In this document: positions 1-38,200 of the stretch, piece by piece
How positions within the stretch are numbered: the first letter of the stretch is position 1
Layout: every line of letters begins with the position of its first letter
Source: Escherichia phage sortregn
DNA: 38,200 nt
Direction: 5' to 3' (one strand)
Sequence record: MN850588.1
Translations under genes and position numbers: made by a program
Notes under the pieces: model-generated
Databases searched by the model: none
Seen by the model: the letters and a program-made list of their open reading frames with translations, nothing else
What the model was told of the DNA's origin: nothing

Positions 1-1029
1 AAAATATTCTTTGTAACGTTGTTGTAAGTAGGTCGGAGTAGTCAGCGCGATCTCCTCCTGACCGTTTGCGTAGGCGGGCCACACGTCCGAGTCGCGGCAG
101 TGTTTGAACACCTGGAGCGCGGTCTTGTACTGCAAGCGCCCGATCATGATTTGCTCCGGCGTTAATCGGTTCATGAGCGCCAGCCACGGCTCGTCTTTTT
201 CCTGAACGAGGAGTTTAGTCCCCGCCGGATCCTGGTTATAGGCCAGCTTGAAACAGTCATGTTGTAAAGCCATCTTGCACCAGTAGCCCAGATCGTGAGC
301 CAGACGACCGAAGCGCTCCGGCTCCGCGCTTTGCGTGGTCTTGTAGTCGATGATCTCGCCGATGTCCGTCACGCGGTCCAGGCGGACCTTAACCGGGACG
401 CCATCGATCACGCAGAACAGCGACAACTCCGGGACGCCCGTCTCAATGATCCGGCGGTAGTTATGATTGACCAGCAACACGTCGCGCATTGAGTGAACGC
501 GGTCCCAGTCCTTCGCCGGGACGATCTCGCGACCGTTCGCCTCTTTGACGGCTTGCGCCTCGATCTCGTGCCAGATATTAAGCGTCTCGCCCGGCATTTG
601 TACGGCGCGACACATAGCGATCAATTCTTCGGCGGTTTTGTTGGAGTAGCCCTTCTGACCGCGTTCCTTTAGCCAGCTTTGCATCTTCGCTACTGACGTG
701 ATCAACTCCGGGAAGTCCTCCGGGTTAGGCAGACGGAAAAACTCGCGCTCGAAGCGTTCCGGCTCAAGTAACATCGTGTGGGAAGTGGTCCCGAATGTGA
801 GCGGCTTCTGGGCGGAGTTTAGTTTTTTGTTGGCGGCTTCCTGTGCTTTCTGGAAACGCCAGGCGGCGGGGCATTTGCTGTAAATGGTCCAGAGGCTCGA
901 CCCGGTAATGTAGATCTCGTCCTCGTGGTATTGCTCGTTTGTAAGCTGGTCGGCGCTCCGGGCGTCGATAAACATCGAAGCCGCGACGTCGTAGGACGGG
1001 AGCGCCGGGATCAATCCGTTCGTTTGCAT
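1..1029 (-). CDS. PD-(D/E)XK exonuclease (RecE/Cas4-like), C-terminus beyond window edge
   Basis: Absent from ORF track (no in-window stop). Hand translation from ATG 1029-1027 (GAGAGG RBS 8 nt upstream) stays open for 343 codons to nt 1: MQTNGLIPALPSYD...VKVRLDRVTDIGEIIDYKTTQSAEPERF... with a D..D/E-x-K nuclease core. Adjacent to VRR-NUC and helicase genes. Confidence 0.75.
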   Translation of the reverse strand, partial: MQTNGLIPALPSYDVAASMFIDARSADQLTNEQYHEDEIYITGSSLWTIYSKCPAAWRFQKAQEAANKKLNSAQKPLTFGTTSHTMLLEPERFEREFFRLPNPEDFPELITSVAKMQSWLKERGQKGYSNKTAEELIAMCRAVQMPGETLNIWHEIEAQAVKEANGREIVPAKDWDRVHSMRDVLLVNHNYRRIIETGVPELSLFCVIDGVPVKVRLDRVTDIGEIIDYKTTQSAEPERFGRLAHDLGYWCKMALQHDCFKLAYNQDPAGTKLLVQEKDEPWLALMNRLTPEQIMIGRLQYKTALQVFKHCRDSDVWPAYANGQEEIALTTPTYLQQRYKEYF

Positions 1030-1068
1030 TGTTGGGACCTCTCACTGGTGAATGTGAGAGGCATTAAA

Positions 1069-1536
1069 TCATTCTTTCGTGATGTTTGCAACTGGTAAAT
1101 TGAGATAATACTCCAGCGCCGCCAGGCCAGCCTCCGCACCCCATGCGACAGCAGTCCAGCCACCACGCGCCCGCGCTCGTTCGAGGACGGTCTTTTGTTC
1201 CGGCTTTAACCGGGACTTTCCGCGATTGTTCCGCTTCAACTCGATCAGCGCGAAGCCATAGCCGCCGCGAGGCTCCAGGAAAACCCAGTCAGAGATCCCG
1301 GCGAGGCGTCCGAGCGCGTTTAACTTCGCCCCGTACCGGGGATCGCTGGAGCCGCCGCTCTCGTTTACTGGGTGGAACGCCAGAAGCGCGTCGGGATCAG
1401 TGTGGGGATCGCCGTAAATCTCCCGGATGTTACTCGCCATGTTTTGCTGTTCGACGTCCTCGTGTGGCGAGTAGGTCGGAATGTGGTCCAGGTAGAACTC
1501 GCGCCAGAACTCAGTCTTTTTGTTTAATACAGGCAT
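1069..1536 (-). CDS. VRR-NUC domain nuclease
   Basis: ORF 1069-1551. Preferred start ATG 1536 (GAGGG 9 nt upstream, 1 nt after helicase stop). GFALIELKRNNRGKSRLKPEQKTVLERARARGGW fits the VRR-NUC E-x-K ... x-x-Q pattern. Confidence 0.8.
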   Translation of the reverse strand: MPVLNKKTEFWREFYLDHIPTYSPHEDVEQQNMASNIREIYGDPHTDPDALLAFHPVNESGGSSDPRYGAKLNALGRLAGISDWVFLEPRGGYGFALIELKRNNRGKSRLKPEQKTVLERARARGGWTAVAWGAEAGLAALEYYLNLPVANITKE

Positions 1537-1537
1537 G

Positions 1538-3580
1538 TTAAAAACCCTCATTCATGAATACTTTGTTAGTGATAACGTCTTTACCCTTGCCGATCTTCCG
1601 GTGGGTAACTTTCAGTGGGGCCATGAAGTACGGCGCGAAGGCGAGGACCTCCTGGGGCGTCCGTAGCTTCTTGATGTCGGCCCGTTTCTTTCCGTCCAGT
1701 ACGTGCTTAAGGATCCCATTGTGGAGCCATTCCTTTTTCGCCTGTGGGCTATCGCTACCGGGCCAGAATACTTGCCACGCCACGAACTGATCGCCGTCCT
1801 TCTCCAACTCGTACCGGAAGGCGATCCCCCCAGTCCCTCGCGCCAATTCCAGACGGAAGCCCCTCACGTTGTAGTAGTCGTCCCTGCTGTACGTGGTCCG
1901 GCTTAAGTTCTTGTTCGGATCTACGAGCGAGTTCCCGCAGCAGCGGCAGATCCTGGCTACGATGTCGTTTTGTGCGCCGCATCCCTTCTGTACCACCTTC
2001 CGCCCGCTGGAGTCCTTCCAGTCGTCGCAGGTGATGAACTGGAAAAAGTGTTCGCAGCGTTCGCCAGTGTCGGGATCGACGTAGCGGCAGCGTCGGGCGT
2101 GTTTGCCGTTTAGCGTCGGGTGGCCCGCCTTGCGACACTTCGGACAGTCTAACTCTAATTCTCCTTTGCTCTCGTCTGCGCTGTGCTGGTATGCCTCCAG
2201 CAGCGGGGAGAAATACAGGGATCCGAGTTCGTCAAGCGTCCCGGCATAGTCGAGGACCAGGTGATCCTCCTTCGTCACCCCGGCGGCGATGTGGAACGGC
2301 TTAAGGATGCGCATACCACGGCCTAAAAGCTGGGTTAGGAGCGTGAGGGATCCGATCTTCCGCAGTATCACGGACGTGTCCCAGAACGGGACGTTAACGC
2401 CAGTCGTTAGGGCGTTAACCTGGAATATAAATTTGATCTCCCCGGTATTGGCGCGGCGCAAAATGTCCATGCGCTTCTTGCCCGTCGTGTCGTCCGTGAT
2501 GATGGCGTAAGGCGTACCAGGGGGAAGGGCCTCCGCCGCCTGTTTGCAGTGTCTCACGCCCGCACACGTCACTAACACGCCGTTCCTGTGCTGGGCGATG
2601 GCGTATACCTCCGCCATGATCTCATGCGTGAGCTTTTTGTCCTTAAGGATCGCCTTTTGCATGGCGTCCATTTCGGCGTCCGTGAACTCCTTAATGCCAT
2701 CCTCGCCGGACGATCGCCACTGGTCGAGGTTGTAGTGGAGATTGGAGATCCCGAAGTGAGTCGGAACAACCGCGCCGACGCTTACCAGGTATTCCGTCGA
2801 GATCTCGCATACCTTCTTACGCCAAAATCCGGGCTGTTCGAGGTCTGGCTGGATGATGGACTCCACGCCACGGTATGGCGTCCCGGTGTAGCCAATAATG
2901 CGGAGTTCCTTCCCGTAGACCTCGCGGGCGCGTTGCTGGAATGTGCGGATAATGATCGTATAGCTGGAGCGACCCGCCTCGATCATCTCCTCGTAAGTCT
3001 CGCCCTTGTGCTCGCCGATAATGGTCGGCTCGTCGAAGCCGTCCAGGATGATCTCCCCGGTTTTCTCGTCCCGCAGGTACTCCGGGACCACGCGCTCCTG
3101 TGAGCGGATCAGGTCCTCAATGTTGACGTGATGGCATTCATCGATCAGCAGGAACAGCGGCGCGTAATGGGCGAGTGCCTGACCTGGGCGGAGTCCTCCG
3201 ATCACTGTACCCTCGGAGCCGACCACGATCGGGAAGTGTGCAGACTTGCGGCCCAGGCTGGCGCAGTAGATCGAGGAGTTCACGCCGAAGTTTTTCAACT
3301 CCTCGAAGTCCTGATCGATGATCTCCCCCTGGCGGGACAGGATCATGGCAGGGAAACCCATATCCCTGATCCGGCGGGCCAGCATGGAGATCATGATGGT
3401 TTTACCCGCACTCACGGCGGCGTCCACAATGACCGGGCCAGGATAGCGACGGATGGCCTCCGCGCAAGCCTCATACGCGACGAACTGGTGATCGTATGGT
3501 GTAACGGGCATATCTCCCAGGGCGCGGAGAATCGCGTCCCGGTCGAGCGCTTCGATCTGTTTCTCCAATGTCATTAACAT
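1538..3580 (-). CDS. SF2 (DEAD/DEAH-type) DNA helicase with C-terminal Zn-ribbon region
   Basis: 680 aa. Walker A VSAGKT, DECHH box, helicase C-terminal half, Cys-rich segment CPKCRK...CRYVD...CRCCGN. AAGGGA RBS. Confidence 0.9.
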   Translation of the reverse strand: MLMTLEKQIEALDRDAILRALGDMPVTPYDHQFVAYEACAEAIRRYPGPVIVDAAVSAGKTIMISMLARRIRDMGFPAMILSRQGEIIDQDFEELKNFGVNSSIYCASLGRKSAHFPIVVGSEGTVIGGLRPGQALAHYAPLFLLIDECHHVNIEDLIRSQERVVPEYLRDEKTGEIILDGFDEPTIIGEHKGETYEEMIEAGRSSYTIIIRTFQQRAREVYGKELRIIGYTGTPYRGVESIIQPDLEQPGFWRKKVCEISTEYLVSVGAVVPTHFGISNLHYNLDQWRSSGEDGIKEFTDAEMDAMQKAILKDKKLTHEIMAEVYAIAQHRNGVLVTCAGVRHCKQAAEALPPGTPYAIITDDTTGKKRMDILRRANTGEIKFIFQVNALTTGVNVPFWDTSVILRKIGSLTLLTQLLGRGMRILKPFHIAAGVTKEDHLVLDYAGTLDELGSLYFSPLLEAYQHSADESKGELELDCPKCRKAGHPTLNGKHARRCRYVDPDTGERCEHFFQFITCDDWKDSSGRKVVQKGCGAQNDIVARICRCCGNSLVDPNKNLSRTTYSRDDYYNVRGFRLELARGTGGIAFRYELEKDGDQFVAWQVFWPGSDSPQAKKEWLHNGILKHVLDGKKRADIKKLRTPQEVLAFAPYFMAPLKVTHRKIGKGKDVITNKVFMNEGF

Positions 3581-3590
3581 TGTTTATCCC

Positions 3591-3620
3591 TTGTAATATC
3601 ACTAAAGCATGATTTATAGT
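3591..3620 (+). promoter_or_regulatory. sigma70-like promoter candidate for the rightward early operon
   Basis: TTGTAA (3591-3596), 18-nt spacer, TATAGT (3615-3620), in the 65-nt divergent gap between the helicase and primase genes. Confidence 0.4.
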
Positions 3621-3645
3621 AACCGGGAAATAACCGGAGGGCAAT

Positions 3646-4464
3646 ATGGCGATCTACAAAAAAGAGGACGTTCTCGCGGCGATGCCCGGCAAATGGGAAC
3701 AGGCGCTCCTCGATCTTTGTGGCTGGGACCGCAAGGCGTTTAACGGCAATCATCAACCTTGCCCGATCTGTGGCGGGACGGACCGCTTTCGCTGGGGCCA
3801 TAAGCAACAGACGAAGAAGGCGGAGGGCTTCGGCTACTGTTCCGGCTCCTGTGGCGGCGCTCGTGATGGCATGTTTTGGTTCATGACCAGCCGATCGCAG
3901 CCGTTCAACGAGGCGATCAACGACCTGGGCGACTGGATAGGCGGACTCACCCCGGAGAAGCGGGAAACCATCGTCAAGGAGGCGCGGAAGTATGCCCGCC
4001 AGCAGGATAAGCCCGCGCAGGACTGGGAACTCACCCCGGAGGACGTGGACAAGATCATGAGCAAAGGCACGATGCGCGACGGATTCCTGTATGTTCCATG
4101 CGCTCGTCCACTGGGGGGATCCCTGGGGCCGTGGTGCAACGTGGCGAAGATCGGCTCCGACAGGTCCGTGGTGTTTGCCGCTGGTGGCCCGACGTGGGGC
4201 GCGGTAGGTCTGATCCACCCAGTGCCAGACGCTCCGGTGTATCTGGTGGCGGATCCGGTCCATGCGGTGAACGTGGCGGCGCGAGGGGAGGCGGAGGTCT
4301 GGCTTACGTTCCGGCCTATGAACGCGGTCCAGGCGTCGGCGATATATGACGGCGATCGGGAGATCCGGTTCGTCTACACTGACCCGGACGAGGTTTTCCT
4401 GTACGGCTACGAGAGGACGGGGAGGCCATGCGTCGGCGGGCATCTTGCCGGGGCGTTCGGGTAA
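3646..4464 (+). CDS. DNA primase-like protein (Zn-ribbon + Toprim-like)
   Basis: 272 aa. HQPCPICGGTDRFRW matches the primase-helicase zinc-binding motif (P4 alpha type). C-terminal VYLVADPVHAVNVAARGE is Toprim-like. GGAGGG RBS. Confidence 0.7.
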   Translation: MAIYKKEDVLAAMPGKWEQALLDLCGWDRKAFNGNHQPCPICGGTDRFRWGHKQQTKKAEGFGYCSGSCGGARDGMFWFMTSRSQPFNEAINDLGDWIGGLTPEKRETIVKEARKYARQQDKPAQDWELTPEDVDKIMSKGTMRDGFLYVPCARPLGGSLGPWCNVAKIGSDRSVVFAAGGPTWGAVGLIHPVPDAPVYLVADPVHAVNVAARGEAEVWLTFRPMNAVQASAIYDGDREIRFVYTDPDEVFLYGYERTGRPCVGGHLAGAFG

Positions 4465-4489
4465 AAAAAAAGGCCCCGCACGAGGGGCC
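4463..4489 (-). terminator. intrinsic-terminator-like hairpin oriented for leftward transcription
   Basis: A9 run (4463-4471), then GGCCCC-GCACGA-GGGGCC (4472-4489). On the minus strand this reads as a hairpin followed by a U9 run. There is no T-run on the plus side. Confidence 0.5.
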
Positions 4490-4542
4490 AGTGGGCGCGA
4501 CCGATACCAGCGGGCGCTAAAGCAATGGTGAACAGTCAACAA

Positions 4543-4560
4543 ATAGCACTTTTTGTTAAA
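4543..4560 (+). repeat. conserved element ATAGCACTTTTTGTTAAA (copy 1)
   Basis: 17/18 identical to 6855-6872. Both copies follow a terminator hairpin and precede CAATTATC (4577-4584) and the next gene. Confidence 0.6.
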
Positions 4561-4616
4561 ACACAAAACAGTTAATCAATTATCGTTAGTCACCACCAAC
4601 CAAAGAAGGGCAGCAG

Positions 4617-5258
4617 ATGAAAGACGAGAAAGACACCACCACGATCGATCATGTGGACGGCATGACCGAGGCGGAACGCGCAGCGGCAGACGTGACCACT
4701 GTTAGCGGTCGCCGCTTCAACAAATCCAAGACGCCGGACGCTATCCGCCAGAAGTGGCAGACCCCGCGCTGGCTGTTCGACTGGGCCGTGAAGCGCTTCG
4801 GGCAATTCGGGATCGATGTGGCAGCAGAAAAGGCTAACGCCCTTTGTGATGTCTACCTGGACGAGAAAACGGACGCCCTCAAGGATGGCGTGGAGTGGGG
4901 AGCCGAGGGCGGGCTGGCGTGGTGTAACCCGCCATACGCGGAGCCGCTTCCGTGGATCGTGAAGGCCATCCAGCAAGCGAAGGATCGCGACGTTACGACC
5001 GTGTTTCTCCTGAACTCCGACGCGTCTACGGCGTGGTTTAAGAAGGCGCTGGACGCCGGGAGCCTGGTTATCCATATCACCAGCGACGGCGAGAACTCCG
5101 GGCGCGTGGCGTTCGTGAAGGCCGGGACCGAAGTCGCGGGCAAGAAGAACAGCAAGCCGTCCGTAATGTTCGTTATCAAGCCGAAGAAGCGCGGACCGAT
5201 CAAGACTGAATATCTGACCCAGGCGGAGATGATGTTCGAAGGCAAAACGATGATTTAA
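4617..5258 (+). CDS. dam: DNA N6-adenine methyltransferase, small phage Dam family
   Basis: 213 aa. LAWCNPPY catalytic (D/N)PPY motif; size and layout of phage Dam enzymes (T1 / Stx-phage type). AAGAAGGG RBS. Confidence 0.85.
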   Translation: MKDEKDTTTIDHVDGMTEAERAAADVTTVSGRRFNKSKTPDAIRQKWQTPRWLFDWAVKRFGQFGIDVAAEKANALCDVYLDEKTDALKDGVEWGAEGGLAWCNPPYAEPLPWIVKAIQQAKDRDVTTVFLLNSDASTAWFKKALDAGSLVIHITSDGENSGRVAFVKAGTEVAGKKNSKPSVMFVIKPKKRGPIKTEYLTQAEMMFEGKTMI

Positions 5259-5274
5259 CCGAGAGGACCCAGAG

Positions 5275-5856
5275 ATGATTATTTATGCACCAGTAAGCGC
5301 CTTACGCGCTCACCAACTGACCAAAGGCCAGCAGGACGTCCGCTATTACCTGAACGCGATCCACTTCATCGGCAACCGGATCCGCACGTCTAACGGTCAT
5401 GTTTGCATGGAAAGCACCCATAAGCTCGTCAACGCGCCGGAGGAGGGGATCATCCTCTCAATCTCCACGCCACCGACTGGGCGGATCTTCTCCGCCGTGA
5501 TCGACACGGACGCCGGGATCGTGTACTGGCTGGACATTCCGGCAGATAAGCCGAAGGACCTCGAAGAAGTGGACCACAAAAAGGCCCGCGTCGCTGTGGG
5601 GACCGTGGACATTGTGGAGGCCAATTATCCGAACGTGGACGCACTCCTGAACAAGGCCCGCGAGAACTCGAAGGCCGTCCACGAGATCGGCGTGGCGACG
5701 CCTTACCTCGGAATGATCGAGAAGCTGGCGAAGAAGTTCGGGATCAAGATGCCTTTTGCGAAACTGAACTTTAACGGCGCAGCGGAGCCGATCCGCGTGA
5801 ACCTGACCACGCCGGACGGCGAGGCCACCCTGATCATTATGCCCGCGAGAGTGTAA
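5275..5856 (+). CDS. truncated DnaN (beta sliding clamp) homologue
   Basis: 193 aa. GQQDVRYYLNAIHF..RTSNGHVCM resembles the E. coli DnaN domain II start (..HQDVRYYLNGMLF..ATDGHRLAV..). ANYPNVDALL resembles GRFPDYRRVLP, and C-terminal ATLIIMPARV resembles AAYVVMPMRL. No domain I equivalent. GAGAGGA RBS. Confidence 0.6.
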   Translation: MIIYAPVSALRAHQLTKGQQDVRYYLNAIHFIGNRIRTSNGHVCMESTHKLVNAPEEGIILSISTPPTGRIFSAVIDTDAGIVYWLDIPADKPKDLEEVDHKKARVAVGTVDIVEANYPNVDALLNKARENSKAVHEIGVATPYLGMIEKLAKKFGIKMPFAKLNFNGAAEPIRVNLTTPDGEATLIIMPARV

Positions 5857-5858: not shown

Positions 5859-6083
5859 ATGGGACCTTATCAGACCTACCGCTGGAAATATTTCGTCCGT
5901 TGCGTGGCGGACGAACTCATGGATCGTAAACTGGTGGCCTCCCGCGAGGAGGCCGAGCACTTCGCCGAAGATCTGGAGGATTCGTTCGCGGAGGACTACG
6001 ACCCGCGTCCGATCTCAGAATGGCGAGCTATCGCGAAGAAAGACGCAGACGACTACGAGAAGGATCTGAAACGTGAAGCATAA
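5859..6083 (+). CDS. hypothetical acidic protein
   Basis: 74 aa ORF starting 3 nt after the upstream stop. Acidic (EDLEDSFAEDYD), no recognisable motif. Confidence 0.6.
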   Translation: MGPYQTYRWKYFVRCVADELMDRKLVASREEAEHFAEDLEDSFAEDYDPRPISEWRAIAKKDADDYEKDLKREA

Positions 6084-6825
6084 GGCGATCTTTTTATTCA
6101 ACCTGACCCGGATCATGGTGGACAAGTGGCTGGACGCTGGCGTGGAATGCTGGATGTATGACGGGCAGCACGAGCCAGGGATCCACCCAGACGCCGACGA
6201 GCCGAACCTGATCCGAGTGGGCCGGATGTTCGACGCGGACAACTCAATCAGGGAAGCGGCTCGCATCGCCGAGGAAGTCGGCCCCGGCGTGATCTTCGTG
6301 GCGTCCTTCGCTGAATGCACCGATCTAACCTGTACCGGGGCGCGATGGTGGGAAGCGAAGCGCAAGAAGGATCCGCGCTTCCAGGAGAAGGCCGTGGCGC
6401 TGGCTAAGATGGTGAAGCACGTCGCGGAATTTTGCAGCGTGGAGAACGGCAGCTTTGAACCCGCTTCGACGGTCCCCTGGATGCTGGAGAATCCGAAGAT
6501 CTCCCGACTCTCCACGATGTGGCGACCTTGCGATCACTGGTTCCACCCCTACAACTTCGGCGGCTACTTGCCGGAGGATCACCAGCATAGCCTCTACCCG
6601 GAGATCTACCCGGCGCGGGACGCGTACCCGAAGCAGACGGGGATCTGGTGCGGTGGCGGCTTCAAGATGCCGGAACACAAGAACGTCCCGGCGGTTAAGG
6701 ATAATCCCGGATGGTCGAAGCTGGGCGGATCTTCGACCCGAACGAAGAACATCCGCAGCGCCACCCCCGAAGGCTTCGCCGTCGCCGTGTTTATCTACAA
6801 CGCCACCCCGATCGCTCCATTCTGA
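6073..6825 (+). CDS. C5-cytosine-methyltransferase-like protein (divergent)
   Basis: 250 aa; GTG start overlaps the upstream stop (GAAGGA RBS). SFAECTDLTCTGARWW (cf. PPCT.L..SG.RW), WMLENP (ENV-like motif) and C-terminal RSATPEGFAVAV. This is the pattern of a phage family usually annotated DNA cytosine methylase. No canonical FxGxG. Confidence 0.5.
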   Translation: MKHKAIFLFNLTRIMVDKWLDAGVECWMYDGQHEPGIHPDADEPNLIRVGRMFDADNSIREAARIAEEVGPGVIFVASFAECTDLTCTGARWWEAKRKKDPRFQEKAVALAKMVKHVAEFCSVENGSFEPASTVPWMLENPKISRLSTMWRPCDHWFHPYNFGGYLPEDHQHSLYPEIYPARDAYPKQTGIWCGGGFKMPEHKNVPAVKDNPGWSKLGGSSTRTKNIRSATPEGFAVAVFIYNATPIAPF

Positions 6826-7990: not shown

Positions 7991-8788
7991 ATGGGGAATT
8001 TTTGGACCTACCACGAGAACACCCAGCGCGGCGGGATCGAACTGGGCCGAGTAATCGACCCGGCGAAAGCCTCGCGCCCGGTGATCTACCTAGAATCAGA
8101 TCCGCCAGGTCTGGACGCGGCGAAGGTTTCCGCCTTCATGCCGTACTACGTTTACACTCCGATGTCCTTCACTCAGGACTTGCCGGGAGTGGCTGGTGGC
8201 GATGCCGCCGCGACCTTCGTCCCTGGGGGGAGCACGTTCTCCGCGACGGTCGAAGTCGCCGGAGGTCAAGCGCCGTTTACTTATCAGTGGTACAAGTTTA
8301 GCGGCGGAGTCGGAACGGCGATCACGCTGGCGCAGAACGCCACGGCCCAGTCGAAGGTATTCCAGATCACCAACTACACCGCAGCGGCTCAACCCGGATC
8401 CGGTAACGGTGATTGGTATGTTGTCGTAACCGACGCGACCGGGGCCACGCTCCAGTCTCAGCGCATCCGCACGAAACAGGCGATCGCCTACTCCGTCAAC
8501 CTACCGACGACCGACACCTGGACCGTCGGGACCGCCGACGCCTTAACCGTCACCGTGAACGCGGCTACGGGCCTTGCGCCGTATACTCATGAATGGTTTA
8601 AGGATGGCGTTTCTCAGGGGCCGGGGACGTCGAGCGGGACGGGGAACGCGACCTCCACGCTATCGAAGGCAAGCCCGGCAGCGGGCGACGCTGGCGTGTA
8701 TTATTGCATTTCCACCAGCGCCAACACGAACCCGCCGAAAACCATCCAGAGCATTTCTTGCACTGTAACCGTTAACCCGGCAGCATAA
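7991..8788 (+). CDS. Ig-like domain protein (two I-set-like repeats)
   Basis: Start ATG 7991 preferred (AGAGAGGA RBS; the 7952 ATG has no RBS). Ig-like repeats ..APFTYQWYKF..GDWYVVVTDATG.. and ..APYTHEWFKDG..DAGVYYCISTS..CTVTV. Confidence 0.75.
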   Translation: MGNFWTYHENTQRGGIELGRVIDPAKASRPVIYLESDPPGLDAAKVSAFMPYYVYTPMSFTQDLPGVAGGDAAATFVPGGSTFSATVEVAGGQAPFTYQWYKFSGGVGTAITLAQNATAQSKVFQITNYTAAAQPGSGNGDWYVVVTDATGATLQSQRIRTKQAIAYSVNLPTTDTWTVGTADALTVTVNAATGLAPYTHEWFKDGVSQGPGTSSGTGNATSTLSKASPAAGDAGVYYCISTSANTNPPKTIQSISCTVTVNPAA

Positions 8789-8798
8789 GGAGCCGACT

Positions 8799-9011
8799 AT
8801 GTTTTATCACTCGCAGGACCTACCGGAGCGCGGCGGCGTTCTACTGACGAAGATCGCGGATCCTGGTTCGGCCCAGGTACAAGCGCGGGATCTGGTCTGG
8901 CTGGATGCTGACCCGACGGGCGGATCGTGGGAGCCACTCCCGGCAGTGTTCGACAAGGTGGACGCCTCCGGGCTGGAGAATCACCTCTCCTACTTCATCC
9001 CATACGCATAA
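8799..9011 (+). CDS. short paralogue of the N-terminal domain of the upstream Ig protein
   Basis: 70 aa; AAGGAG RBS. FYHSQDLPERGGVLLTKIADP..LDADPTGG parallels FWTYHENTQRGGIELGRVIDP..LESDPPG. C-terminal SYFIPYA parallels FMPYYVY. Confidence 0.7.
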   Translation: MFYHSQDLPERGGVLLTKIADPGSAQVQARDLVWLDADPTGGSWEPLPAVFDKVDASGLENHLSYFIPYA

Positions 9012-9038
9012 AAAAGGGGGCCAATCGGCCCCCTGTTT
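9010..9038. terminator. bidirectional terminator between convergent Ig cassette and lysis genes
   Basis: A-run, GGGGGCC-AATC-GGCCCCC, then TGTTT. Lies between the stop at 9011 (+) and the stop at 9037 (-). Confidence 0.8.
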
Positions 9039-9558
9039 ACTGCTGACGCTCCACGGCGTCGTAATTCACTTCGCAGACCTCCCCGGCGGTGATCGCCTTC
9101 TCCGCTATATCAGCATACCGTCGAGCAGCTTCTCCAGTCCCTCGGAGCAAGTCGGAATACATTCGGGCGGTCTTTTCCCCTGACGCCCTTCCGAGGGCAG
9201 CGGTCTGATCAGCGGCTTCGCGTCTGGCGTTCTCTTTGGCGGCTCGTTCGAGCAACCGATCAAGGGCAGCACCAGCAGCAGCAGAAGCGGCGCGAGCTTT
9301 TGCGGCCTGTTCGTTCGCATATTTTACGGACTCCTCGCGGGCAATGGCCCGGCCTTGTTCAATGATACGGGCGGCGGCTTGTGCGTTCGCTTCCTGGGTG
9401 GATTCCTTCGCGATCCGAGCATTGTCGCGAGCGGTCCAGCCCCGGTCCGTCCAGGCCGAGCCAGCCCAGAAAGATCCCCCCAGCGCCAGCAGCACGACAA
9501 CGACGAGCAGCAGCGATCGCCAGTGAGTCGAAAGGAACACGCGGAGGGCGGCGATCAT
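9037..9558 (-). CDS. Rz: i-spanin (Rz-like)
   Basis: 173 aa. N-terminal TM (WRSLLLVVVVLLALGG), Ala/Glu/Arg-rich coiled-coil periplasmic part. ATGA overlap with the endolysin stop. Contains the embedded Rz1-like ORF. Confidence 0.85.
   Translation of the reverse strand: MIAALRVFLSTHWRSLLLVVVVLLALGGSFWAGSAWTDRGWTARDNARIAKESTQEANAQAAARIIEQGRAIAREESVKYANEQAAKARAASAAAGAALDRLLERAAKENARREAADQTAALGRASGEKTARMYSDLLRGTGEAARRYADIAEKAITAGEVCEVNYDAVERQQ
9105..9320 (-). CDS. Rz1: o-spanin (Rz1-like lipoprotein), embedded in the i-spanin gene
   Basis: 71 aa in the +1 frame inside Rz. Signal peptide with lipobox LPLIGC, then a Pro-rich mature part (EPPKRTPDAKPLIRPLP). Confidence 0.85.
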   Translation of the reverse strand: MRTNRPQKLAPLLLLLVLPLIGCSNEPPKRTPDAKPLIRPLPSEGRQGKRPPECIPTCSEGLEKLLDGMLI

Positions 9559-10034
9559 TCGTCTGCAACCTTACCGCCAGCGGCGCGGAAGTAGCCCAGG
9601 AAGTCCTCGAAAGTCTCCGTTCGCTGACCGTATGGGGAGCCAGGCAGGGAGGCCCAGATGGTCCGGCATTTCTTCACGGCGTCCTTGATCCGGCCCGCGT
9701 CGATGTCGTCCAGCGCTTTACGCTCGCTGATCTGCTGGAGGGCGATCTGGTCCTGTGATGCCGGAGAGAAGTCCGGGAGTCCAAGCTGTTTTTTGTACAC
9801 GTCATAATAGCGGCTTAACAACTGGTAGCGCCCGGCGGCGGTTGAATTGATCCCCAGCTTCGGCAGCTTTACGAGGCGGTTCGGATGCTTCGAGTAGTCG
9901 CTGAACAGGGAGCCGCCCACGATCACGTCGTAGCCGTGATTGCGCGTCTGCTGGCGTCCGTTGTCTGTTCCCTCGCCTACCGCGATCGCGTCCAGGAATG
10001 CCTTACGCTGGGGCGTGACTTCAAATTTTGCCAT
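9555..10034 (-). CDS. endolysin, lambda R-type lytic transglycosylase
   Basis: 159 aa, near-collinear with lambda R as recalled: QRKAFLDAIAVGEGTDNGRQQTRNHGYDVIVGG, AAGRYQLLSR, IWASLPG. Confidence 0.95.
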   Translation of the reverse strand: MAKFEVTPQRKAFLDAIAVGEGTDNGRQQTRNHGYDVIVGGSLFSDYSKHPNRLVKLPKLGINSTAAGRYQLLSRYYDVYKKQLGLPDFSPASQDQIALQQISERKALDDIDAGRIKDAVKKCRTIWASLPGSPYGQRTETFEDFLGYFRAAGGKVADE

Positions 10035-10374
10035 CGGTCTGATCCTCGTGGTTAGTGTGCGCCGGAGTAGCGCGGATTTTTTTCAGGAATGGGATCTTTT
10101 CGCTGGCCCAGTCGAGCGCCGTCTCTACGCCCACGTAGCCCAGGAACACCGAAGCCAGATAGCCCCAGGTGCCATGATCGACCCCGAAGAATGATAAAAT
10201 ATTATTCATACCGAAAGCGACAGCAGCGCAGATCGCCCCGCCGCTGACAATATCGCGGAACGGGTGGCGCAATTGCCAGTGACGGAACACAGCCACCGAT
10301 GCCGCGATGAACGAATAACCTAACTCAACGCGGTATAGCTGGAACAATTGCCATAGCGTCGTATGCTCAGACAT
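10021..10374 (-). CDS. class I holin (lambda S-like)
   Basis: ORF 10021-10440; start ATG 10374 (MSEHTT) preferred. Three hydrophobic helices. ASVFLGYVGVETALDW..KIPFLKK resembles lambda S [24 protein letters not shown]. Basic/acidic C-terminal tail. Confidence 0.8.
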   Translation of the reverse strand: MSEHTTLWQLFQLYRVELGYSFIAASVAVFRHWQLRHPFRDIVSGGAICAAVAFGMNNILSFFGVDHGTWGYLASVFLGYVGVETALDWASEKIPFLKKIRATPAHTNHEDQTDGKI

Positions 10375-10472
10375 TGGAGGGATCCCTTTTAACAAGTGAG
10401 TGAACGCTAAAAGGGTAGCATGTGGAATCAAGGGCCGCAAAGCCCCTTTTCAGATGAAAGGTTAAGTAATTG

Positions 10473-10784
10473 TTATTTGCCGGAAAGAAGGCGCAAGGCG
10501 TCCATAGGAGACTCCGCCCCGGCTAACTGTTTAGCGAAGCCCTCCGCCGCCTGGCGCAGCTTGTCCACGTCCTCGAAGCCGCGATCGCGAGCCGCTTCCG
10601 CTTCGGTGTAGGCCGCTTCCCCGTCCATCGCCTGATCGTCCGGGTGGAACACCAGGTTAAACGACAATTCCGCGCCCTGGATCTCAGTGACCAGGCAGAT
10701 CGCCGGATTGTCGTCCGAGTCCTCGCCTTTGCGGACCAGAACCTGGCGATCGTGTGCTTCAAATAAGTGTGCGAAACGTTCCAT
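10473..10784 (-). CDS. hypothetical protein
   Basis: ORF 10473-10889; ATG 10784 preferred (AAGAGGT RBS). 103 aa, acidic, no motif recognised. Confidence 0.6.
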   Translation of the reverse strand: MERFAHLFEAHDRQVLVRKGEDSDDNPAICLVTEIQGAELSFNLVFHPDDQAMDGEAAYTEAEAARDRGFEDVDKLRQAAEGFAKQLAGAESPMDALRLLSGK

Positions 10785-10789
10785 AATAT

Positions 10790-11026
10790 TTACCTCTTGC
10801 CTTTGACCTGGAGCCGCTGACGACGGCCCCGCGTTTTGTTGTTGTACTCCTCGTGGGACAGTAGATCCCACGTTTCCCCCTCGTCCCACGTCACGAGCCG
10901 CCAGCTATAGCCCACGTTGAACGCTAACACCTTGCCGAAACCCCGGAGGCGCTTCGGTGACAACTCCCGCGCATAGTACCGCGCCAGAATGTCGTCGGCC
11001 TTCCGCTGGACCTTCTCCGGGATCAT
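10790..11026 (-). CDS. small basic protein with tentative RelE/ParE-like pattern
   Basis: 78 aa. RLRGFGKVLAFNVGYSWRLVTWDEGETWDLLSHEEY resembles RelE KLRGMPDCYKIKLRSSGYRLVYQV (as recalled). ATGA overlap with the upstream gene. The functional call is weak. Confidence 0.55.
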   Translation of the reverse strand: MIPEKVQRKADDILARYYARELSPKRLRGFGKVLAFNVGYSWRLVTWDEGETWDLLSHEEYNNKTRGRRQRLQVKGKR

Positions 11027-11400
11027 CCCGCAGGACCGGACAGGACAGCCAGCGCGAGGCGGGCGTGTTTGATCCGGCCTTCCAGAAATTCCCGCATCTC
11101 CTCGATCGCAGCCTCAGCCGTGACCGCTTCGAACTCGTCGCGATGGTTCCCGCGAGGGCCTTCCGGCAGCGAATAACAAGCCGTGTAACGCGTGATGCTA
11201 CGGCAGACGATCGAGACTGGTCCGCATGTGAGAATGTACCCGAACCCGCCGCCCAGCTTCTCCTCGCGCTCGTATGTCTGAACGCGGATCGGCATGGACT
11301 GGACGCTGGACTGGTGGCGAATGAGCGAGGCCACGCGCTCCGCGTCCTGCTGTGCGTCGGAGGCAGTGGGCCAGCGTGTTACTACTGTTACTTTCGACAT
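11023..11400 (-). CDS. hypothetical protein
   Basis: 125 aa; AGGAG RBS; translationally coupled to the downstream 78-aa gene. Confidence 0.65.
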   Translation of the reverse strand: MSKVTVVTRWPTASDAQQDAERVASLIRHQSSVQSMPIRVQTYEREEKLGGGFGYILTCGPVSIVCRSITRYTACYSLPEGPRGNHRDEFEAVTAEAAIEEMREFLEGRIKHARLALAVLSGPAG

Positions 11401-11419
11401 CTTCGACTCCTGGGTGGAT

Positions 11420-11435
11420 GGCCCCCGAAGGGGCC
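11420..11435 (-). other. stable intergenic GC hairpin
   Basis: GGCCCC-CGAA-GGGGCC in the 41-nt gap between two leftward genes. No U-run, so possibly an RNA stability or processing element. Confidence 0.3.
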
Positions 11436-11441
11436 GGGTGA

Positions 11442-11693
11442 TTAATAATATTCGTCGGCGCGGATCTTGTTACGATGGATAATGCGACGTGCTTCGAGTT
11501 CGCCGCGTGTGGTGTACTCGTCCACGTACTCCTCGATCTCCGGCTCCTCGCCTGTGAGTTCCGGCGCTTTCCATGAGAGATAACGCTTAACTGTGCCAGT
11601 TTTAACGAACGCCGGGAGCAGGTTTTTAAAGTTACGTGACCAGTGACGCCCGCGCTCTTGATCGCCTTTTACCATGATTGTTAAGTTTGCCAT
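11442..11693 (-). CDS. hypothetical protein
   Basis: 83 aa; GGAGAG RBS; charged, no motif recognised. Confidence 0.65.
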   Translation of the reverse strand: MANLTIMVKGDQERGRHWSRNFKNLLPAFVKTGTVKRYLSWKAPELTGEEPEIEEYVDEYTTRGELEARRIIHRNKIRADEYY

Positions 11694-11766
11694 CGTTATC
11701 TCTCCGGTAGTGGGCGACCCATTGCCGCCCGGTGAAAGAACTATAACAACATTTGATAAATCGCTT

Positions 11767-12851: not shown

Positions 12852-12876
12852 ATTGCCCTCCGTTGTGTGGAAATCA

Positions 12877-12904
12877 ATATTACATAACGTTACCATGATG
12901 TAAA
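12877..12904 (-). promoter_or_regulatory. sigma70-like promoter candidate for the leftward operon
   Basis: On the minus strand: TTTACA (12904-12899), 16-nt spacer, TAATAT (12882-12877). The spacer contains GGTAAC (complement of 12889-12894). Confidence 0.5.
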
Positions 12905-12975: not shown

Positions 12976-12991
12976 ATGAGGTGATTAAACA

Positions 12992-14656: not shown

Positions 14657-14670
14657 CCGGGGCGTGTGTT

Positions 14671-36451: not shown

Positions 36452-36892
36452 TTATTCTGGGTTAAGCCCTTCACCGTTAACCAGATGCCACTCTTTATGA
36501 TGCTTCTCGCAGAGCCAGCGCACATCTAACGGGCGATCGTAGTCGTCATGATGTCCCACTACCTTCTCCGCCCCGCAGACCTCACACGGCCCCCTGTGGA
36601 GTTCTCCAGTCTTTAGCGCGTAATAGACCATGCTATGAGCGCGGCGCTTCTTTGGATGCCTGGCATGATAGGCTGATTTTGTAGCGTTCGATCGCTCCCG
36701 GCCTTCTCCATGCTGATATTTTTTAGCGTGACAGATGATCCTCTCTTTTCTTTCTGGATCGCTGTGGTAATAACTCCGGTAATTCTTGTTCTTGCACTGG
36801 CGACAGCGTGGATCCCTTCCGTCCTTCCGGCGCTTGTCCTTGTGGAACTCCTCCGGCGGCTTTGATTCGTGGCAAATTGTGCATTGTTTCAT
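36452..36892 (-). CDS. HNH endonuclease
   Basis: 146 aa. N-terminal CTICH..CRQC zinc motif and C-terminal CEVCG..VGHHDDYDRPLDVRWLCEKHHKEWH. Confidence 0.85.
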   Translation of the reverse strand: MKQCTICHESKPPEEFHKDKRRKDGRDPRCRQCKNKNYRSYYHSDPERKERIICHAKKYQHGEGRERSNATKSAYHARHPKKRRAHSMVYYALKTGELHRGPCEVCGAEKVVGHHDDYDRPLDVRWLCEKHHKEWHLVNGEGLNPE

Positions 36893-36935: not shown

Positions 36936-37481
36936 TTAAAACGGAATATCATCGTCGAAATCTTGAGGCGGCTCGTTAGACGCTCCAGAAGCGCCACCAC
37001 GAGGCGCAGACCCAGACCCGCTACCCTTGCCAGGATTTTGCGAGTTCGTCGCGCCACGGCCCGGAGAATTGCGAGAATTGCCACCGCCGCCGGAGTGGGT
37101 AGGTCCACTCCCCCCAGACTGACCGCCTTCACGCTTCCCGCCTAACATTTGCATCGTGCCGCCGACGTTCACGACGACCTCCGTCGTGTACTTCTCGACG
37201 CCTTGCTGGTCCGTCCATTTGCGCGTCTGGAGCTTGCCTTCGATGTAGACCTGGGACCCCTTGCGGAGATACTCTCCGGCGACCTCCGCCAGCTTGCCCC
37301 ACAAAACGACGCGATGCCATTCCGTGATCTCCTTCATCTCGCCCGTTTGCTTATCGCGCCAGGACTCGGAGGTGGCTACGGTGATATTTGCCACCGCGCC
37401 GCCGTTCGGCATGTATTTTACTTCGGGATCCTGGCCCAGATTGCCGACCAGAATCACCTTATTAACGCCGCGTGATGCCAT
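36936..37481 (-). CDS. ssb: single-stranded DNA-binding protein
   Basis: 181 aa. [22 protein letters not shown] fold, Gly-rich linker, acidic tip DFDDDIPF. Confidence 0.97.
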
Positions 37482-37483
37482 GC

Positions 37484-38164
37484 TTAGAAGTCCTCAATAT
37501 TCGGTTTATCTTCCGCCGCTGGTGCTTCCTGCTGTGGCTCTACCGGGGCGGCGGGCTGTGCTTTCGCCGTGGCATTATCGGCGGTCTTTTTCTGCTTAAC
37601 AACCGAAGCCGGGTTAAACCCTTTCGACTCGCTGGCGCGGAGTGCCGCCTTGCGGGTAATGTGCCAATCGCGGACGACCTTCACGCTCGCCGAGTCGTCC
37701 GCCAGCATGTGGACCACTTTCCCCACGGCTTCGTCCAGTTTTTCCACGTCGTCGATCGATTCGAGATCCGCGATCCACTGGCGGGCGGTTTTCTTCGTCG
37801 CGTTGCCGTCGTCGTCTGCCTGGGTGATGCCGAACAGCGCCGCCAGGTGATAGCGTCGGGCATAGGTGATCGCCGAGCCGACAGAGTGAGCCGCCGCGCC
37901 CTTACCGAAGGAGAGAGGCATCTCCATAACCGCCGTCATGAACTCGCCGGACTCGTGGAGGACCATCGTCTCCAGCGGTAACACGAGCATGTTATTTTTT
38001 TCGGTGCAGGGCATAGGCGTTTGAACGACGATCAAGCCGTTCGACTCCAGCGCCGGGCGGATCGTGGCGATGAAGGATCCCAAGTCCGCATACCAGTTAT
38101 GCAGGTGATTATTTTCCGTGTTCTTTTTGGCCTCGGACATCATAGCGATGCGGGCCTTAACCAT
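37484..38164 (-). CDS. erf: ERF-family single-strand annealing protein
   Basis: 226 aa. [20 protein letters not shown] is an Erf-family signature. The start may instead be ATG 38143, which forms an ATGA overlap with an upstream frame. Confidence 0.85.
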
Positions 38165-38200
38165 TGCCGGGACAATCGCGGCGCGTGATTCAGAAAATAA
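38140..38200 (-). CDS. possible 3' end of an upstream gene (fragment)
   Basis: Minus frame open from the window edge to TGA at 38142-38140, overlapping an internal erf ATG in an ATGA arrangement. Only about 20 codons are visible. Confidence 0.25.
   Translation of the reverse strand, partial: YFLNHAPRLSRQWLRPASL

Follow-up and report, generated by a model that had tools for sequence, protein, structure and literature searches.

Genome and methyltransferase genes

The window analysed here, a stretch of 38,200 nt with a GC content of 0.593, belongs to an Escherichia phage sortregn-like Murrayvirus, 98–99% identical to Salmonella phage Lumpael, and the phage is a virulent phage of E. coli/Salmonella. 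On the plus strand, positions 4617–5258 encode a Dam-family N6-adenine methyltransferase of 213 amino acids. This assignment, made in the initial annotation from the letters alone, is borne out by profile searches: the product matches PF05869 (E=5.7e-44; 150.2 bits, cutoff 28.1; profile positions 1–168 of 169) and reaches 116.6 bits with the TIGR01712 phage_N6A_met equivalog, whose cutoff is 97.05. The catalytic motif NPPY (N104-P105-P106-Y107) is intact and is invariant over 12 aligned homologues including T1 Dam, as are 17 further columns across the clade members and T1 Dam. The gene was found in every clade genome examined. The enzyme belongs to the same family of orphan methylases as T1 Dam, to which it is 32–34% identical. 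Like T1 Dam, and functionally also the Dams of T2/T4 and P1, it stands alone without a partner nuclease, and protective self-methylation is the presumed role of both. Some PF05869 relatives have been reported to be non-specific; for this enzyme we infer GATC as the target because of its family membership, with indirect support from an enriched word that is exactly GATC and from the ATCGAT pattern described below. The host Dam could make the same mark.

The genes of this region follow the order Dam, RusA-like, gp31, second methyltransferase-like, and the order is the same in Kc237, STP9, L099 and L102. The RusA-like Holliday-junction resolvase gene (5275–5856, plus strand; phrog_3007, E=1.6e-44) lies between the two methyltransferase genes of this conserved cassette. 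The second methyltransferase-like gene (6073–6825, plus strand, 250 amino acids) matches the phrog_757 'DNA methyltransferase' family with E=1.5e-65; searches of its product against Pfam and NCBIfam, and against PDB sequences at E≤1, gave no match. Its AlphaFold2 model (pLDDT 92.9) finds its best PDB matches, which are weak, in the catalytic domains of DNMT1 and MET1 (E about 3e-4, TM 0.39–0.45). E81-C82-T83 and E139-N140-P141 are invariant and compatible with C5-methyltransferases, and homologues are called 'Dcm methylase' in several public records. The product looks like a putative divergent cytosine-C5 methyltransferase, and its gene accompanies Dam in all clade genomes examined. Genome scans found no genes for further base modification or hypermodification, so that the earlier thought of GATC as a substrate for further modification gains nothing from the gene content. 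Among the annotated and scanned genes, none was recognised as coding for a DNA polymerase.

GATC content

GATC occurs 494 times in the window (12.9/kb; exact count), distributed over positions 1–38200; 484 sites are at least partly coding and 10 are intergenic. The initial annotation had extrapolated to about 500 sites from hand counts of 11, 11 and 9 in three 720-nt stretches, the second of which should read 10. Its "about four-fold" excess agrees with the observed/expected ratio of 3.58 by base composition. Dinucleotide-preserving shuffles contain 218±12 GATC (ratio 2.26, z=22.5), and a second-order Markov model gives a ratio of 1.44. Within genes, 473 GATC are observed against 267±10.7 in synonymous shuffles that leave the proteins and the codon usage of every gene unchanged (ratio 1.77, z≈19). 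By this codon-aware null GATC ranks first among the 256 tetranucleotides, with z=20.6 against z=11 for the runner-up, and 482 of the 814 synonymously possible positions (59%) are filled. Neither base composition nor amino-acid sequence nor codon usage accounts for the excess.

Codon context

All three codon phases, in which GATC had been noticed by eye, are enriched over the synonymous null: GAT|C with 111 against 64, nGA|TCn with 32 against 11, and nnG|ATC with 330 against 192. The choice of Asp codon follows the next base, as two short examples had hinted. Before C, 54% of the Asp codons are GAT, compared with 18% elsewhere (OR 5.2, p=2e-21). The example at 18241–18300 is as described; that at 20700–20830 keeps its trend with corrected counts (GAT before C in 2/2, GAC before non-C in 5/6). 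In the other 15 NNY codon families the effect is far weaker, the top odds ratios being 2.3–2.7 (GGY, TCY; p about 1e-3 to 6e-3). Similarly, 69% of ATC codons have a G before them, compared with 25% of ATT and 37–44% of other A-starting codons. A context effect that large is confined to the GAY family and, among following codons, to ATC. The effect at Asp codons is real and specific to GATC.

GGATCC, which had also seemed frequent, occurs at 38 sites genome-wide, 37 of them in genes against a null of 15.3 (2.4x, compared with 1.8x for GATC); flank composition revealed no extended motif around GATC. In this the phage differs from the subcluster B3 mycobacteriophages, where GATC and GGATCC are about fourfold over-represented, GGATCC being specifically elevated, an excess left unexplained by its authors (Siranosian et al. 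2015, PMC4841201). The two cases are alike in a roughly fourfold excess that is genome-wide rather than limited to one region. The mycobacteriophage hosts are without Dam, while those of the window phage are Dam-positive. The B3 study applied neither a codon-aware null nor a test of conservation, and its text does not mention methyltransferases (PMC4841201).

Relatives and controls

Nine relatives, from four ICTV genera and including unclassified members, have GATC ratios of 1.45–1.93 against the synonymous null, with totals of 407–524 per clade genome. Individual sites turn over, and the sharing of sites with distant genera is low (Jaccard 0.15–0.19). Where a site exists, the synonymous bases within it are conserved above matched controls in 8/8 comparisons. 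For instance, in Skarpretter the wobble G before ATC is retained in 93% against 33% in the control (p=9e-12), and GAT before C in 83% against 45%. A stable total made up of changing sites is what weak selection per site, acting on density, leaves behind. The clade really does keep about twice the GATC that its proteins and codon usage predict, and does so through synonymous codon choice. We found no earlier report of a GATC excess for this clade in the literature.

Outside the clade the picture is different. E. coli (ratio 1.06, about 4.8 GATC/kb) and phage T1 (1.07) are neutral, P22 is depleted (0.38), and coliphage J8-65 and phiX174 contain no GATC at all, in keeping with the statement of the initial annotation that phages usually deplete such palindromes. 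GATC avoidance in enterobacterial phages was reportedly noted by McClelland in 1985 and by Deschavanne and Radman in 1991 (J Mol Evol 33:125). Those phages deal with the same tetranucleotide, hosts and machinery (Dam, MutH, GATC-reading nucleases) and are also under selection at synonymous sites, yet the sign is opposite, 0.38x in P22 against 1.45–1.93x here. The window was earlier called P22-like. This holds for its structural module, whose portal, scaffold, needle and ejection proteins are annotated as P22 type, but not for composition and GATC usage. The P22-like prophage loci compared, 77 in number and with coat proteins 73–76% identical, are depleted in GATC (1.2–3.8/kb) at a GC content of 0.475–0.52; the coat gene uses 16/27 possible sites in the window and 4.3/28.7 in the prophage loci. 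Among Dam carriers elsewhere, other T1-like phages have ratios of 1.1–1.45 and temperate carriers are depleted, while an unrelated viral contig of 67.6% GC with only the Dam homologue in common reaches 1.59 (z=12.9). As T1 and the temperate carriers show, possession of a Dam does not suffice for a GATC excess. T1 has the enzyme without the excess; the window genome has been reshaped to about 1.8x, with ATCGAT present only where GATC overlaps it.

Avoidance of palindromes and the ATCGAT pattern

Short palindromes in the window fall below the codon-aware null, which is the mark of restriction-site avoidance. Of the 64 palindromic hexamers 28 are absent, those not containing GATC reach 0.29x of the synonymous null, CTAG is found 4 times where 23 would be expected, and there is no EcoKI, EcoBI, EcoRI or PstI site. 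GATC itself, unlike in T7-like and P22-like phages, is not avoided (1.77x null).

The ClaI-type site ATCGAT occurs 20 times between positions 403 and 37760, starting at 403, 3140, 3314, 4644, 4812, 7255, 13763, 16784, 17922, 19731, 19857, 20751, 24482, 25865, 26206, 28251, 31956, 33050, 33589 and 37755. Every copy overlaps GATC, as GATCGAT or ATCGATC (20/20), and no unoverlapped copy occurs in 13 clade sequences examined. The exception is contig L099, weakly enriched in GATC, where 2/8 ATCGAT are unprotected. Complete clade genomes carry 12–20 copies each. Pooled over five lineages there are 86 overlapped copies (null 39.6) and 0 unoverlapped (null 33.6). The conservative flank-based probability of finding none is 0.005–0.107 per genome, and the sites, being mostly lineage-specific, are mostly independent between lineages. 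In the controls, unprotected copies are common: 11/19 in T1, 9/12 in P22 and 10/17 in E. coli. T1-like Dam-carrying loci show a weaker signature (24 unprotected against 61 expected). It is absent from the P22-like prophage loci (190 against 193), of which 1/77 showed a Dam homologue in the ±10 kb retrieved around the locus. Across these sequences the signature tracks Dam carriage. In 84 Dam-carrying sequence sets, palindrome avoidance is stronger where the GATC ratio is higher (Spearman −0.33, p=0.002; phylogeny uncorrected), a weak correlation confounded by relatedness. Overlapping Dam methylation blocks ClaI-type enzymes. An analogous block has been described for NruI (PMC2890505). Because palindromes have been purged and ATCGAT is left only at GATC overlaps, the pattern suggests methylation masking restriction sites.

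Alternatively, the excess could have no adaptive value. Dam would remove the counter-selection on GATC, which would then be inflated passively, either by a context-dependent bias in mutation or repair or by a 'refuge' effect; in the refuge version, nearly all other short words are purged by restriction avoidance and synonymous choices funnel into the safe GATC. The extreme oligonucleotide filtering just described speaks for such a process, as do the free turnover of sites and an excess that goes with synonymous freedom and is almost lacking from intergenic DNA. Nevertheless, before ATC the bases C, T and A are all reduced together, which is not the avoidance of one word; T1 has Dam yet is neutral; and GC pressure would push GAT to GAC, yet GAT is kept specifically before C. 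We know of no mutational or repair process that drives sequence towards GATC; methylation, moreover, usually turns a site into a mutation hotspot. We regard passive inflation as unlikely.

Distribution along the genome

GATC occupancy per gene is homogeneous over early and late genes and both strands, and spacing is indistinguishable from random filling of the possible positions. The 12 gaps of more than 300 nt are as many as random expectation, and about 29% of gaps between adjacent sites are of at most 31 nt, slightly below random placement. An additive and position-independent effect would produce such a distribution, and three further explanations can be weighed on it.

The uniform, genome-wide spread would fit access to host mismatch repair, in which dense GATC together with the phage Dam keeps parental strands methylated, so that MutHLS repairs through short excision tracts and the mutation rate falls. 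With no phage DNA polymerase gene found, host replication and repair are relevant. However, about 4.8 GATC/kb suffices for E. coli, and the gain from 13/kb should be small; a modifier of mutation rate divided among about 200 extra sites would be under extremely weak selection; and spacing no more even than random gives no hint that coverage is selected. With an over-active Dam the hemimethylated state is shorter-lived and discrimination between strands should suffer, as is known from Dam overproduction. The restriction of ATCGAT to GATC overlaps and the link to palindrome avoidance are left unexplained. This account seems to us slightly less plausible still than passive inflation.

Position independence is also expected if tens of thousands of extra sites on replicating phage DNA soak up SeqA, MutH or host Dam, or recruit SeqA to organise that DNA, and so upset host replication control or repair in the phage's favour. 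The host chromosome has about 19,000 GATC sites. About 494 sites multiplied by a burst of about 100, the burst size of Kc237 (PMC8402661), would exceed that number. The phage Dam, however, would counter any titration of Dam and shorten the life of the hemimethylated sites bound by SeqA and MutH, the closely spaced pairs that SeqA favours are not enriched, and the masking of ATCGAT again has no place in the scheme, which makes titration very improbable. Even less credible is that GATC serves as the recognition element of a phage enzyme, namely the zinc-ribbon primase (3646–4464; PF08273), the HNH endonuclease or the VRR-NUC nuclease. T7-type zinc-ribbon primases do read short fixed template sequences, a palindrome would serve both strands, and with additional sites priming or nicking could become more frequent and replication or recombination faster. 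The proposal is purely speculative, with no sequence link of primase, HNH or VRR-NUC to GATC; it accounts for neither the conserved Dam nor the ATCGAT pattern, and the unrelated contig with only Dam in common is equally enriched.

Coding DNA carries 13.3 GATC/kb, and intergenic DNA 10 sites in 1,911 nt (5.2/kb; composition expectation 7.4). Pooled over nine clade genomes, 17.9 kb of intergenic DNA holds 67 GATC, 1.0x by composition and 1.36x by the dinucleotide null. The excess does lie in coding DNA, as first proposed, but intergenic DNA is not free of GATC, which occurs there at about chance frequency. Two regions singled out earlier, 12852–12991 (140 nt) and 14657–14911 (255 nt), indeed have no GATC, a zero that at these lengths is not statistically meaningful. 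The latter, an intergenic region inside one of the 12 long gaps, would be expected to contain about 1 site at intergenic density and about 3 at coding density. The former is a real divergent promoter region, since the Lumpael annotation over-extends the adjoining ORF: homologues place the start of this minus-strand gene (12417–12851) at Met43 of the Lumpael-annotated ORF. All 4 promoter-like matches in a scan of 12780–15300 fall within it, against 1.1 in shuffles. Taken with the conservation data, these results show that GATC density is held by weak genome-wide selection on DNA at synonymous positions, and not by placement of GATC at specific regulatory positions. Because GATC is palindromic, selection on DNA is formally inseparable from selection on GAUC in the mRNA.

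Methylated GATC as a possible shield

The GATC-specific excess, its clade-wide maintenance, the phage Dam and the opposite trend in typical enteric phages together point to a positive use of GATC by the phage. The reading we favour, at slightly under even odds (about 0.45), is that dense Dam-methylated GATC is kept under weak genome-wide selection as a shield against host nucleases. GATC would be the target of both the phage Dam-family enzyme and the host Dam, and the former probably maintains methylation at all of the approximately 494 sites (988 adenines, 6.4% of adenines) while the phage replicates rapidly. Alone among short palindromes, methylated GATC would then be safe from enterobacterial hosts: enzymes needing unmethylated sites would be blocked, and a nuclease cutting G-m6A-TC would wreck the host's own Dam-methylated chromosome. 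A methylated site would also hide any restriction target overlapping its adenines. Under heavy restriction pressure each extra GATC may bring a small additive gain, and synonymous sites would drift to GATC until mutation-selection balance, at about 59% occupancy. The self-mark proposed at the outset comes close to this restriction shield, which is more specific and draws on the purged palindromes and the ATCGAT overlap.

The weakest step is the size and the object of the protective benefit. Masking is seen for one hexamer; TCGCGA is masked in some lineages only, and TCATGA and TCGA are unmasked. Only about 9% of hexamer windows are predicted to hold methylated adenines, a thin shield, and therefore the benefit per site may be too small. 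Against a shield also speak the abundance of GGATCC and CGATCG, since adenine methylation does not stop BamHI- and PvuI-type enzymes, and the Dam carriers that show no GATC excess, T1 and the temperate phages. The near-absent intergenic excess needs the added assumption that regulatory constraints dominate there.

A bolder form of the shield is possible, though we hold it doubtful: that GATC density is an evolved defence, a sequence-encoded 'methyl armour', for which synonymous sites have been rewritten to give the phage's own methylase as many substrates as possible and to which the second methyltransferase may add a cytosine methyl at GATC or close by. G-m6A-TC would escape both the methylation-sensitive and the methylation-dependent nucleases of Dam-positive hosts, and the cytosine methyl would also cover BamHI-, PvuI- and Sau3AI-type enzymes. 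Hypermodified bases, the non-specific adenine methylases of the Hia5/M.EcoGII type and the dam-h mutants of T2/T4 follow the same logic of denser modified bases against nucleases. Those systems relax specificity or change base chemistry, whereas the window phage would multiply the target of a site-specific enzyme. If true, site avoidance and base hypermodification would be joined by a third anti-restriction strategy, one that may be repeated in T1-like phages (weakly), in the unrelated high-GC contig and possibly in the B3 mycobacteriophages.

GATC is over-represented at synonymous positions

GATC, the site of Dam methylation, occurs 494 times in the window, or 12.9 per kb. The initial annotation had extrapolated to about 500 sites from three 720-nt samples, for which it gave 11, 11 and 9 sites; exact counting yields 11, 10 and 9, so that only the second was one too high. 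Base composition predicts 138 sites (observed/expected 3.58), in line with the roughly four-fold excess claimed there. A dinucleotide-preserving shuffle of the whole genome predicts 218±12 (ratio 2.26, z=22.5), and a second-order Markov null 344 (ratio 1.44). The synonymous shuffle, carried out per gene, keeps each protein sequence and the codon usage of each gene. Under this null, which the annotation had proposed as a test, the excess stands, with 473 in-gene sites observed against 267±10.7 expected (ratio 1.77, z=19). By the synonymous shuffle GATC is also the top of all 256 tetranucleotides (z=20.6), followed by CTGG (z=11). The number of synonymously possible GATC positions is 814, of which 482 (59%) are occupied.

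Neither base composition nor the high GC content of the window (59.3% over 38,200 nt) can be the cause, as the dinucleotide and synonymous shuffles fall far too low and other high-GC phage loci reach only 0 to 1.16 fold. The amino-acid sequence was rejected likewise. The coat gene offers 27 possible sites compared with 28.7 in GATC-poor orthologues, which is not higher, yet 16 of the 27 are used in the window versus 4.3 of 28.7 in P22-like prophage loci. The latter supplied 77 coat homologues of 73–76% identity, in loci with a GC content of 0.475–0.52 and 1.2–3.8 GATC per kb.

All three codon phases, in which sites had been noticed initially, are enriched over the synonymous null: 330 versus 192 for nnG|ATC, 111 versus 64 for GAT|C, and 32 versus 11 for nGA|TCn. 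The hint that the choice of Asp codon tracks the next base proved to be a strong effect, since GAT accounts for 54% of the Asp codons followed by C and for 18% of the rest (OR 5.2, p=2e-21). Among the 16 NNY families only Asp strongly prefers T when C follows, the next odds ratios being 2.3–2.7 for GGY and TCY. Similarly, a G-ending codon precedes ATC in 69% of cases, compared with 25% for ATT and 17–56% for other common following codons. A generic codon-pair or junction bias was therefore discarded, because an effect of this size appears in GAY and ATC only and the three phases converge on one palindrome. A longer motif such as GGATCC or CGATCG was discarded as well; the composition of the flanks reveals no extended motif beyond codon-phase effects, and GATC-containing hexamers rise roughly in step with GATC itself (CGATCG and GGATCC 2.2–2.4 fold, TGATCA 1.6 fold). 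The excess is specific to GATC, independent of frame and located at synonymous sites, and composition, protein sequence and codon usage do not account for it. Given the palindromic nature of GATC, selection could in principle act on GAUC in RNA rather than on DNA.

Occupancy is uniform across coding DNA

Occupancy is uniform over early and late genes and on both strands, and the sites are spaced as they would be if the possible positions were filled at random. Counts per 500 nt are near Poisson (variance/mean 0.84), and gaps longer than 300 nt number 12 against 10.7 expected. Clusters, periodicity and GATC-free functional zones were sought along the window and none was seen, nor was there an excess of closely spaced GATC pairs. 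Recently acquired genes lacking the signal were considered and dismissed, as no gene deviates once multiple testing is allowed for. One rival explanation is that the sites titrate or recruit SeqA, MutH or Dam.

The 1,911 nt of intergenic DNA in the window hold 10 GATC where composition predicts 7.4, and the pooled intergenic DNA of nine clade genomes holds 67 in 17.9 kb, 1.0 times the composition and 1.36 times the dinucleotide expectation. By these regional counts the excess therefore resides in coding DNA, where synonymous freedom exists. The initial view that GATC is confined to coding DNA is right for the excess, but intergenic DNA carries the site at about chance frequency and is not empty. 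The two regions singled out as GATC-free are so short that a lack of sites there is uninformative.

Genes of the window were carried over from the annotation of the Salmonella phage Lumpael (Murrayvirus), which is 98–99% identical, the window being reverse-complemented and rotated relative to it; three corrections were made. The gene at 12417–12851 (− strand), annotated as 12417–12977 (186 aa) in Lumpael, starts at Met43 in all homologues, and 12852–12991 (140 nt) is therefore a genuine divergent promoter region. A scan of 12780–15300 returned four promoter-like matches, all within 12852–12991, versus 1.1 in shuffles. A conserved 144-aa ORF at 17163–17597 (+), not in the Lumpael annotation, lies upstream of the large terminase gene, is 94% identical to the annotated gp43 of IME_EC2 and is possibly the small terminase. 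A conserved HNH endonuclease gene at 36452–36892 (−; 146 aa, 76% identity to IME_EC2 gp22) is also not annotated in Lumpael. The early genes gp05–gp11 of Lumpael (about 3 kb; compare 1856–5345 of that genome) are missing from the window at about 15100–15320, a junction with fragments of gp05 and gp12 only. A small early protein at 10790–11026 (−) has a toxin domain resembling ParE (PF24732, E=1.3e-18).

A conserved methylase cassette

The ORF at 4617–5258 (+) does encode the Dam-family methylase initially proposed, as it matches PF05869 (E=6e-44), scores over the cutoff of the TIGR01712 equivalog, has an invariant NPPY motif and is 32–34% identical to T1 Dam. Its N-terminus (MKDExD..T.D; 4617–4650 of the window), ahead of the Pfam-matched region, is conserved in the clade and in T1 Dam. 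The order Dam, RusA-like resolvase, small ORF and second methyltransferase-like gene is kept in every clade genome examined, and no member without Dam was found among them. The second protein, encoded at 6073–6825 (+), has no Pfam or NCBIfam match. Its AlphaFold2 model (pLDDT 92.9) finds the catalytic domains of DNMT1 and MET1 as best PDB matches, weakly, and its E-C-T and E-N-P motifs are invariant. The 217 homologues at E≤1e-5, of about 230–260 aa, occur in phage-sized contigs and prophages, some under the record name 'Dcm methylase'. With the model taken into account, the product is probably a divergent cytosine-C5 methyltransferase. A sequence search of solved structures gave no match for either methyltransferase, and no genes for further base modification turned up when the early region was scanned with Pfam, PHROG and NCBIfam. 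Another rival explanation is that GATC is the recognition site of a phage enzyme.

Carriage of Dam is not a sufficient cause of enrichment: T1, whose Dam belongs to this family, has a ratio of 1.07, and 79 surveyed viral loci carrying PF05869-like genes also speak against it. Clade members range from 1.26 to 1.91 in this survey, about 35 T1-like contigs from 1.1 to 1.45, and the remaining loci, many of them probably temperate, mostly from 0.33 to 1.2. The T1-like or Webervirus-sized contigs with Dam (L103–L137) display a steady mild excess, with 5–6.7 GATC per kb and ratios mostly of 1.1–1.45. One unrelated viral contig of 67.6% GC, L165 (IMGVR_UViG_3300031951_001237, 8279–23310), has only the Dam homologue (35% identity) in common with the window. 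It holds 13.5 GATC per kb with a synonymous-shuffle ratio of 1.59 (z=12.9), and each of its 7 ATCGAT copies overlaps a GATC.

Palindrome avoidance and proposed masking of ATCGAT

The window is strongly filtered against restriction targets. Absent from it are 28 of the 64 palindromic hexamers, including CTGCAG, GAATTC, CCCGGG, CGGCCG and GTCGAC; sites for EcoKI, EcoBI, EcoRI and PstI number zero, and hexamer palindromes without GATC stand at 0.29 times the synonymous null. Six clade relatives lack 19–31 hexamers, T1 lacks 11 and P22 lacks 6. In a comparison of 84 sequence sets with Dam, the GATC ratio is higher where palindromes are avoided more strongly (Spearman −0.33, p=0.002, with no correction for relatedness). 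A further rival explanation is that GATC is inflated passively, by a refuge effect or a mutation bias.

ATCGAT, a ClaI-type site, occurs 20 times in the window, starting at 403, 3140, 3314, 4644, 4812, 7255, 13763, 16784, 17922, 19731, 19857, 20751, 24482, 25865, 26206, 28251, 31956, 33050, 33589 and 37755, and each copy overlaps GATC as GATCGAT or ATCGATC. All 13 clade sequences checked (ten complete genomes including the window, the near-complete STP9 record, and contigs L101 and L102) have 9–20 copies each and none that is not overlapped. The exception is the weakly enriched contig L099 (ratio 1.26), with 2 of 8 not overlapped. With five lineages pooled, 86 copies overlap GATC, where the null predicts 39.6, and 0 do not, where it predicts 33.6. 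A conservative null with real flank frequencies expects 2.1–4.5 non-overlapped copies per genome, with a probability of zero of 0.005–0.107 each; the sites are mostly lineage-specific, and the lineages are therefore largely independent trials. Non-overlapped copies make up 11 of 19 in T1, 9 of 12 in P22 and 10 of 17 in E. coli; P22-like prophage loci have 190 versus 193 expected, and T1-like Dam-carrying loci are intermediate, with 24 versus 61 expected.

Overlapping Dam methylation blocks ClaI-type enzymes. An equivalent block is described for NruI, while Sbo13I, an enteric isoschizomer, is insensitive to Dam methylation (PMC2890505). The limitation of TCGCGA to GATC-overlapped copies in some lineages only fits the insensitivity of Sbo13I. 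Masking of TCATGA and TCGA by GATC was looked for in the clade and not found.

Other oligonucleotides deviate as well. CTAG occurs 4 times in the window versus 23 expected from the synonymous null, and 2–6 times in all clade members; scarce CTAG together with high CTGG resembles the very-short-patch repair signature of E. coli. The strand-symmetric pairs TTGG/CCAA (0.44 times), GTGC/GCAC (0.56 times) and CTGC/GCAG (0.74 times) lie below the synonymous null, GTGC being one half of the EcoKI site.

Conservation and turnover in the clade

The phages Lumpael, IME_EC2, sortsyn, ST231, Sortsne, IME279, Kc237, C130_2 and Skarpretter have 55–60% GC and 10–13 GATC per kb, and the same test gives these nine genomes synonymous-shuffle ratios of 1.45–1.93 (z=12–22). 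STP9 (vB_SstS_STP9, OR754315.1) is a further clade member with 472 GATC, proteins 35–69% identical to those of the window, and the Dam and second-methylase cassette; its 'Stutzerimonas' host (record UNVERIFIED_ORG) looks a doubtful assignment. The ratio is 1.06 for 50 kb of E. coli K-12 and 0.38 for P22. J8-65 (NC_025445.1), a 41-kb coliphage of 55.7% GC, has no GATC at all, where its own codon usage predicts 134, and 38 of the 64 palindromic hexamers are missing from it. In this phage the same problem is solved the opposite way. No Dam homologue was found in P22 or J8-65.

When codons are aligned with those of eight relatives, synonymous bases inside GATC prove better conserved than matched synonymous controls. 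Between the window and Skarpretter, a wobble G is kept in 93% of cases before ATC and in 33% before other codons that begin with A (p=9e-12); the retention of GAT is 83% before C and 45% otherwise, and that of GAC 31% before C and 79% otherwise. Individual sites turn over (Jaccard 0.15–0.19 with distant genera), with totals steady at 407–524 per genome. Conservation combined with turnover is the pattern of weak selection on many exchangeable sites, as in codon bias. The excess is thus shown to be upheld across a deep clade by preferential conservation, alongside a conserved Dam-family gene.

Discussion

The simplest reading is that infecting DNA carries methylated GATC, whose methyl groups would hide overlapping restriction targets. 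The genomes strongly suggest both that the sites are methylated and that methylation is protective. Each methylated GATC would contribute a small additive gain, which may be the reason for the excess; it would be the only palindrome beyond the reach of both methylation-sensitive and methylation-dependent nucleases of a Dam-positive host, and it would mask neighbouring sequence as well. Alternatively, dense GATC could provide better access to host mismatch repair, a rival explanation backed by an experiment with phiX174 (PMC5014478).

Literature searches returned no report of GATC enrichment in Murrayvirus and its relatives. The closest precedent is the unexplained fourfold excess of GATC and GGATCC in B3 mycobacteriophages (PMC4841201). 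We rate the clade as a combination of known elements, an orphan phage Dam and oligonucleotide selection, with the sign of target-site selection reversed. Deschavanne and Radman reportedly described GATC avoidance in 1991, the opposite of the clade pattern. The masking signature, in which ATCGAT is tolerated only where it overlaps GATC, is previously undescribed.

According to textbooks, short palindromes are purged from phage genomes, and from those of enteric phages GATC above all. A well-sampled clade, comprising Murrayvirus, Sortsnevirus, Hungariovirus and Skarprettervirus, runs counter to this rule with strong statistics and an internal control, as the same genomes purge other palindromes. 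If methylated GATC does protect these phages, a protective system can arise by co-evolution of a genome's sequence with a site-specific orphan methylase, widespread phage Dam genes acquire a testable rationale, and a restriction site seen only in overlap with a methylation site permits purely computational inference of methylation in vivo and of its target. Therapy and biocontrol are prospective uses of phages of this clade. Their DNA is expected to withstand MboI/DpnII-type and ClaI-type enzymes and to be shredded by DpnI, and which hosts they can infect may hinge on the methylase.
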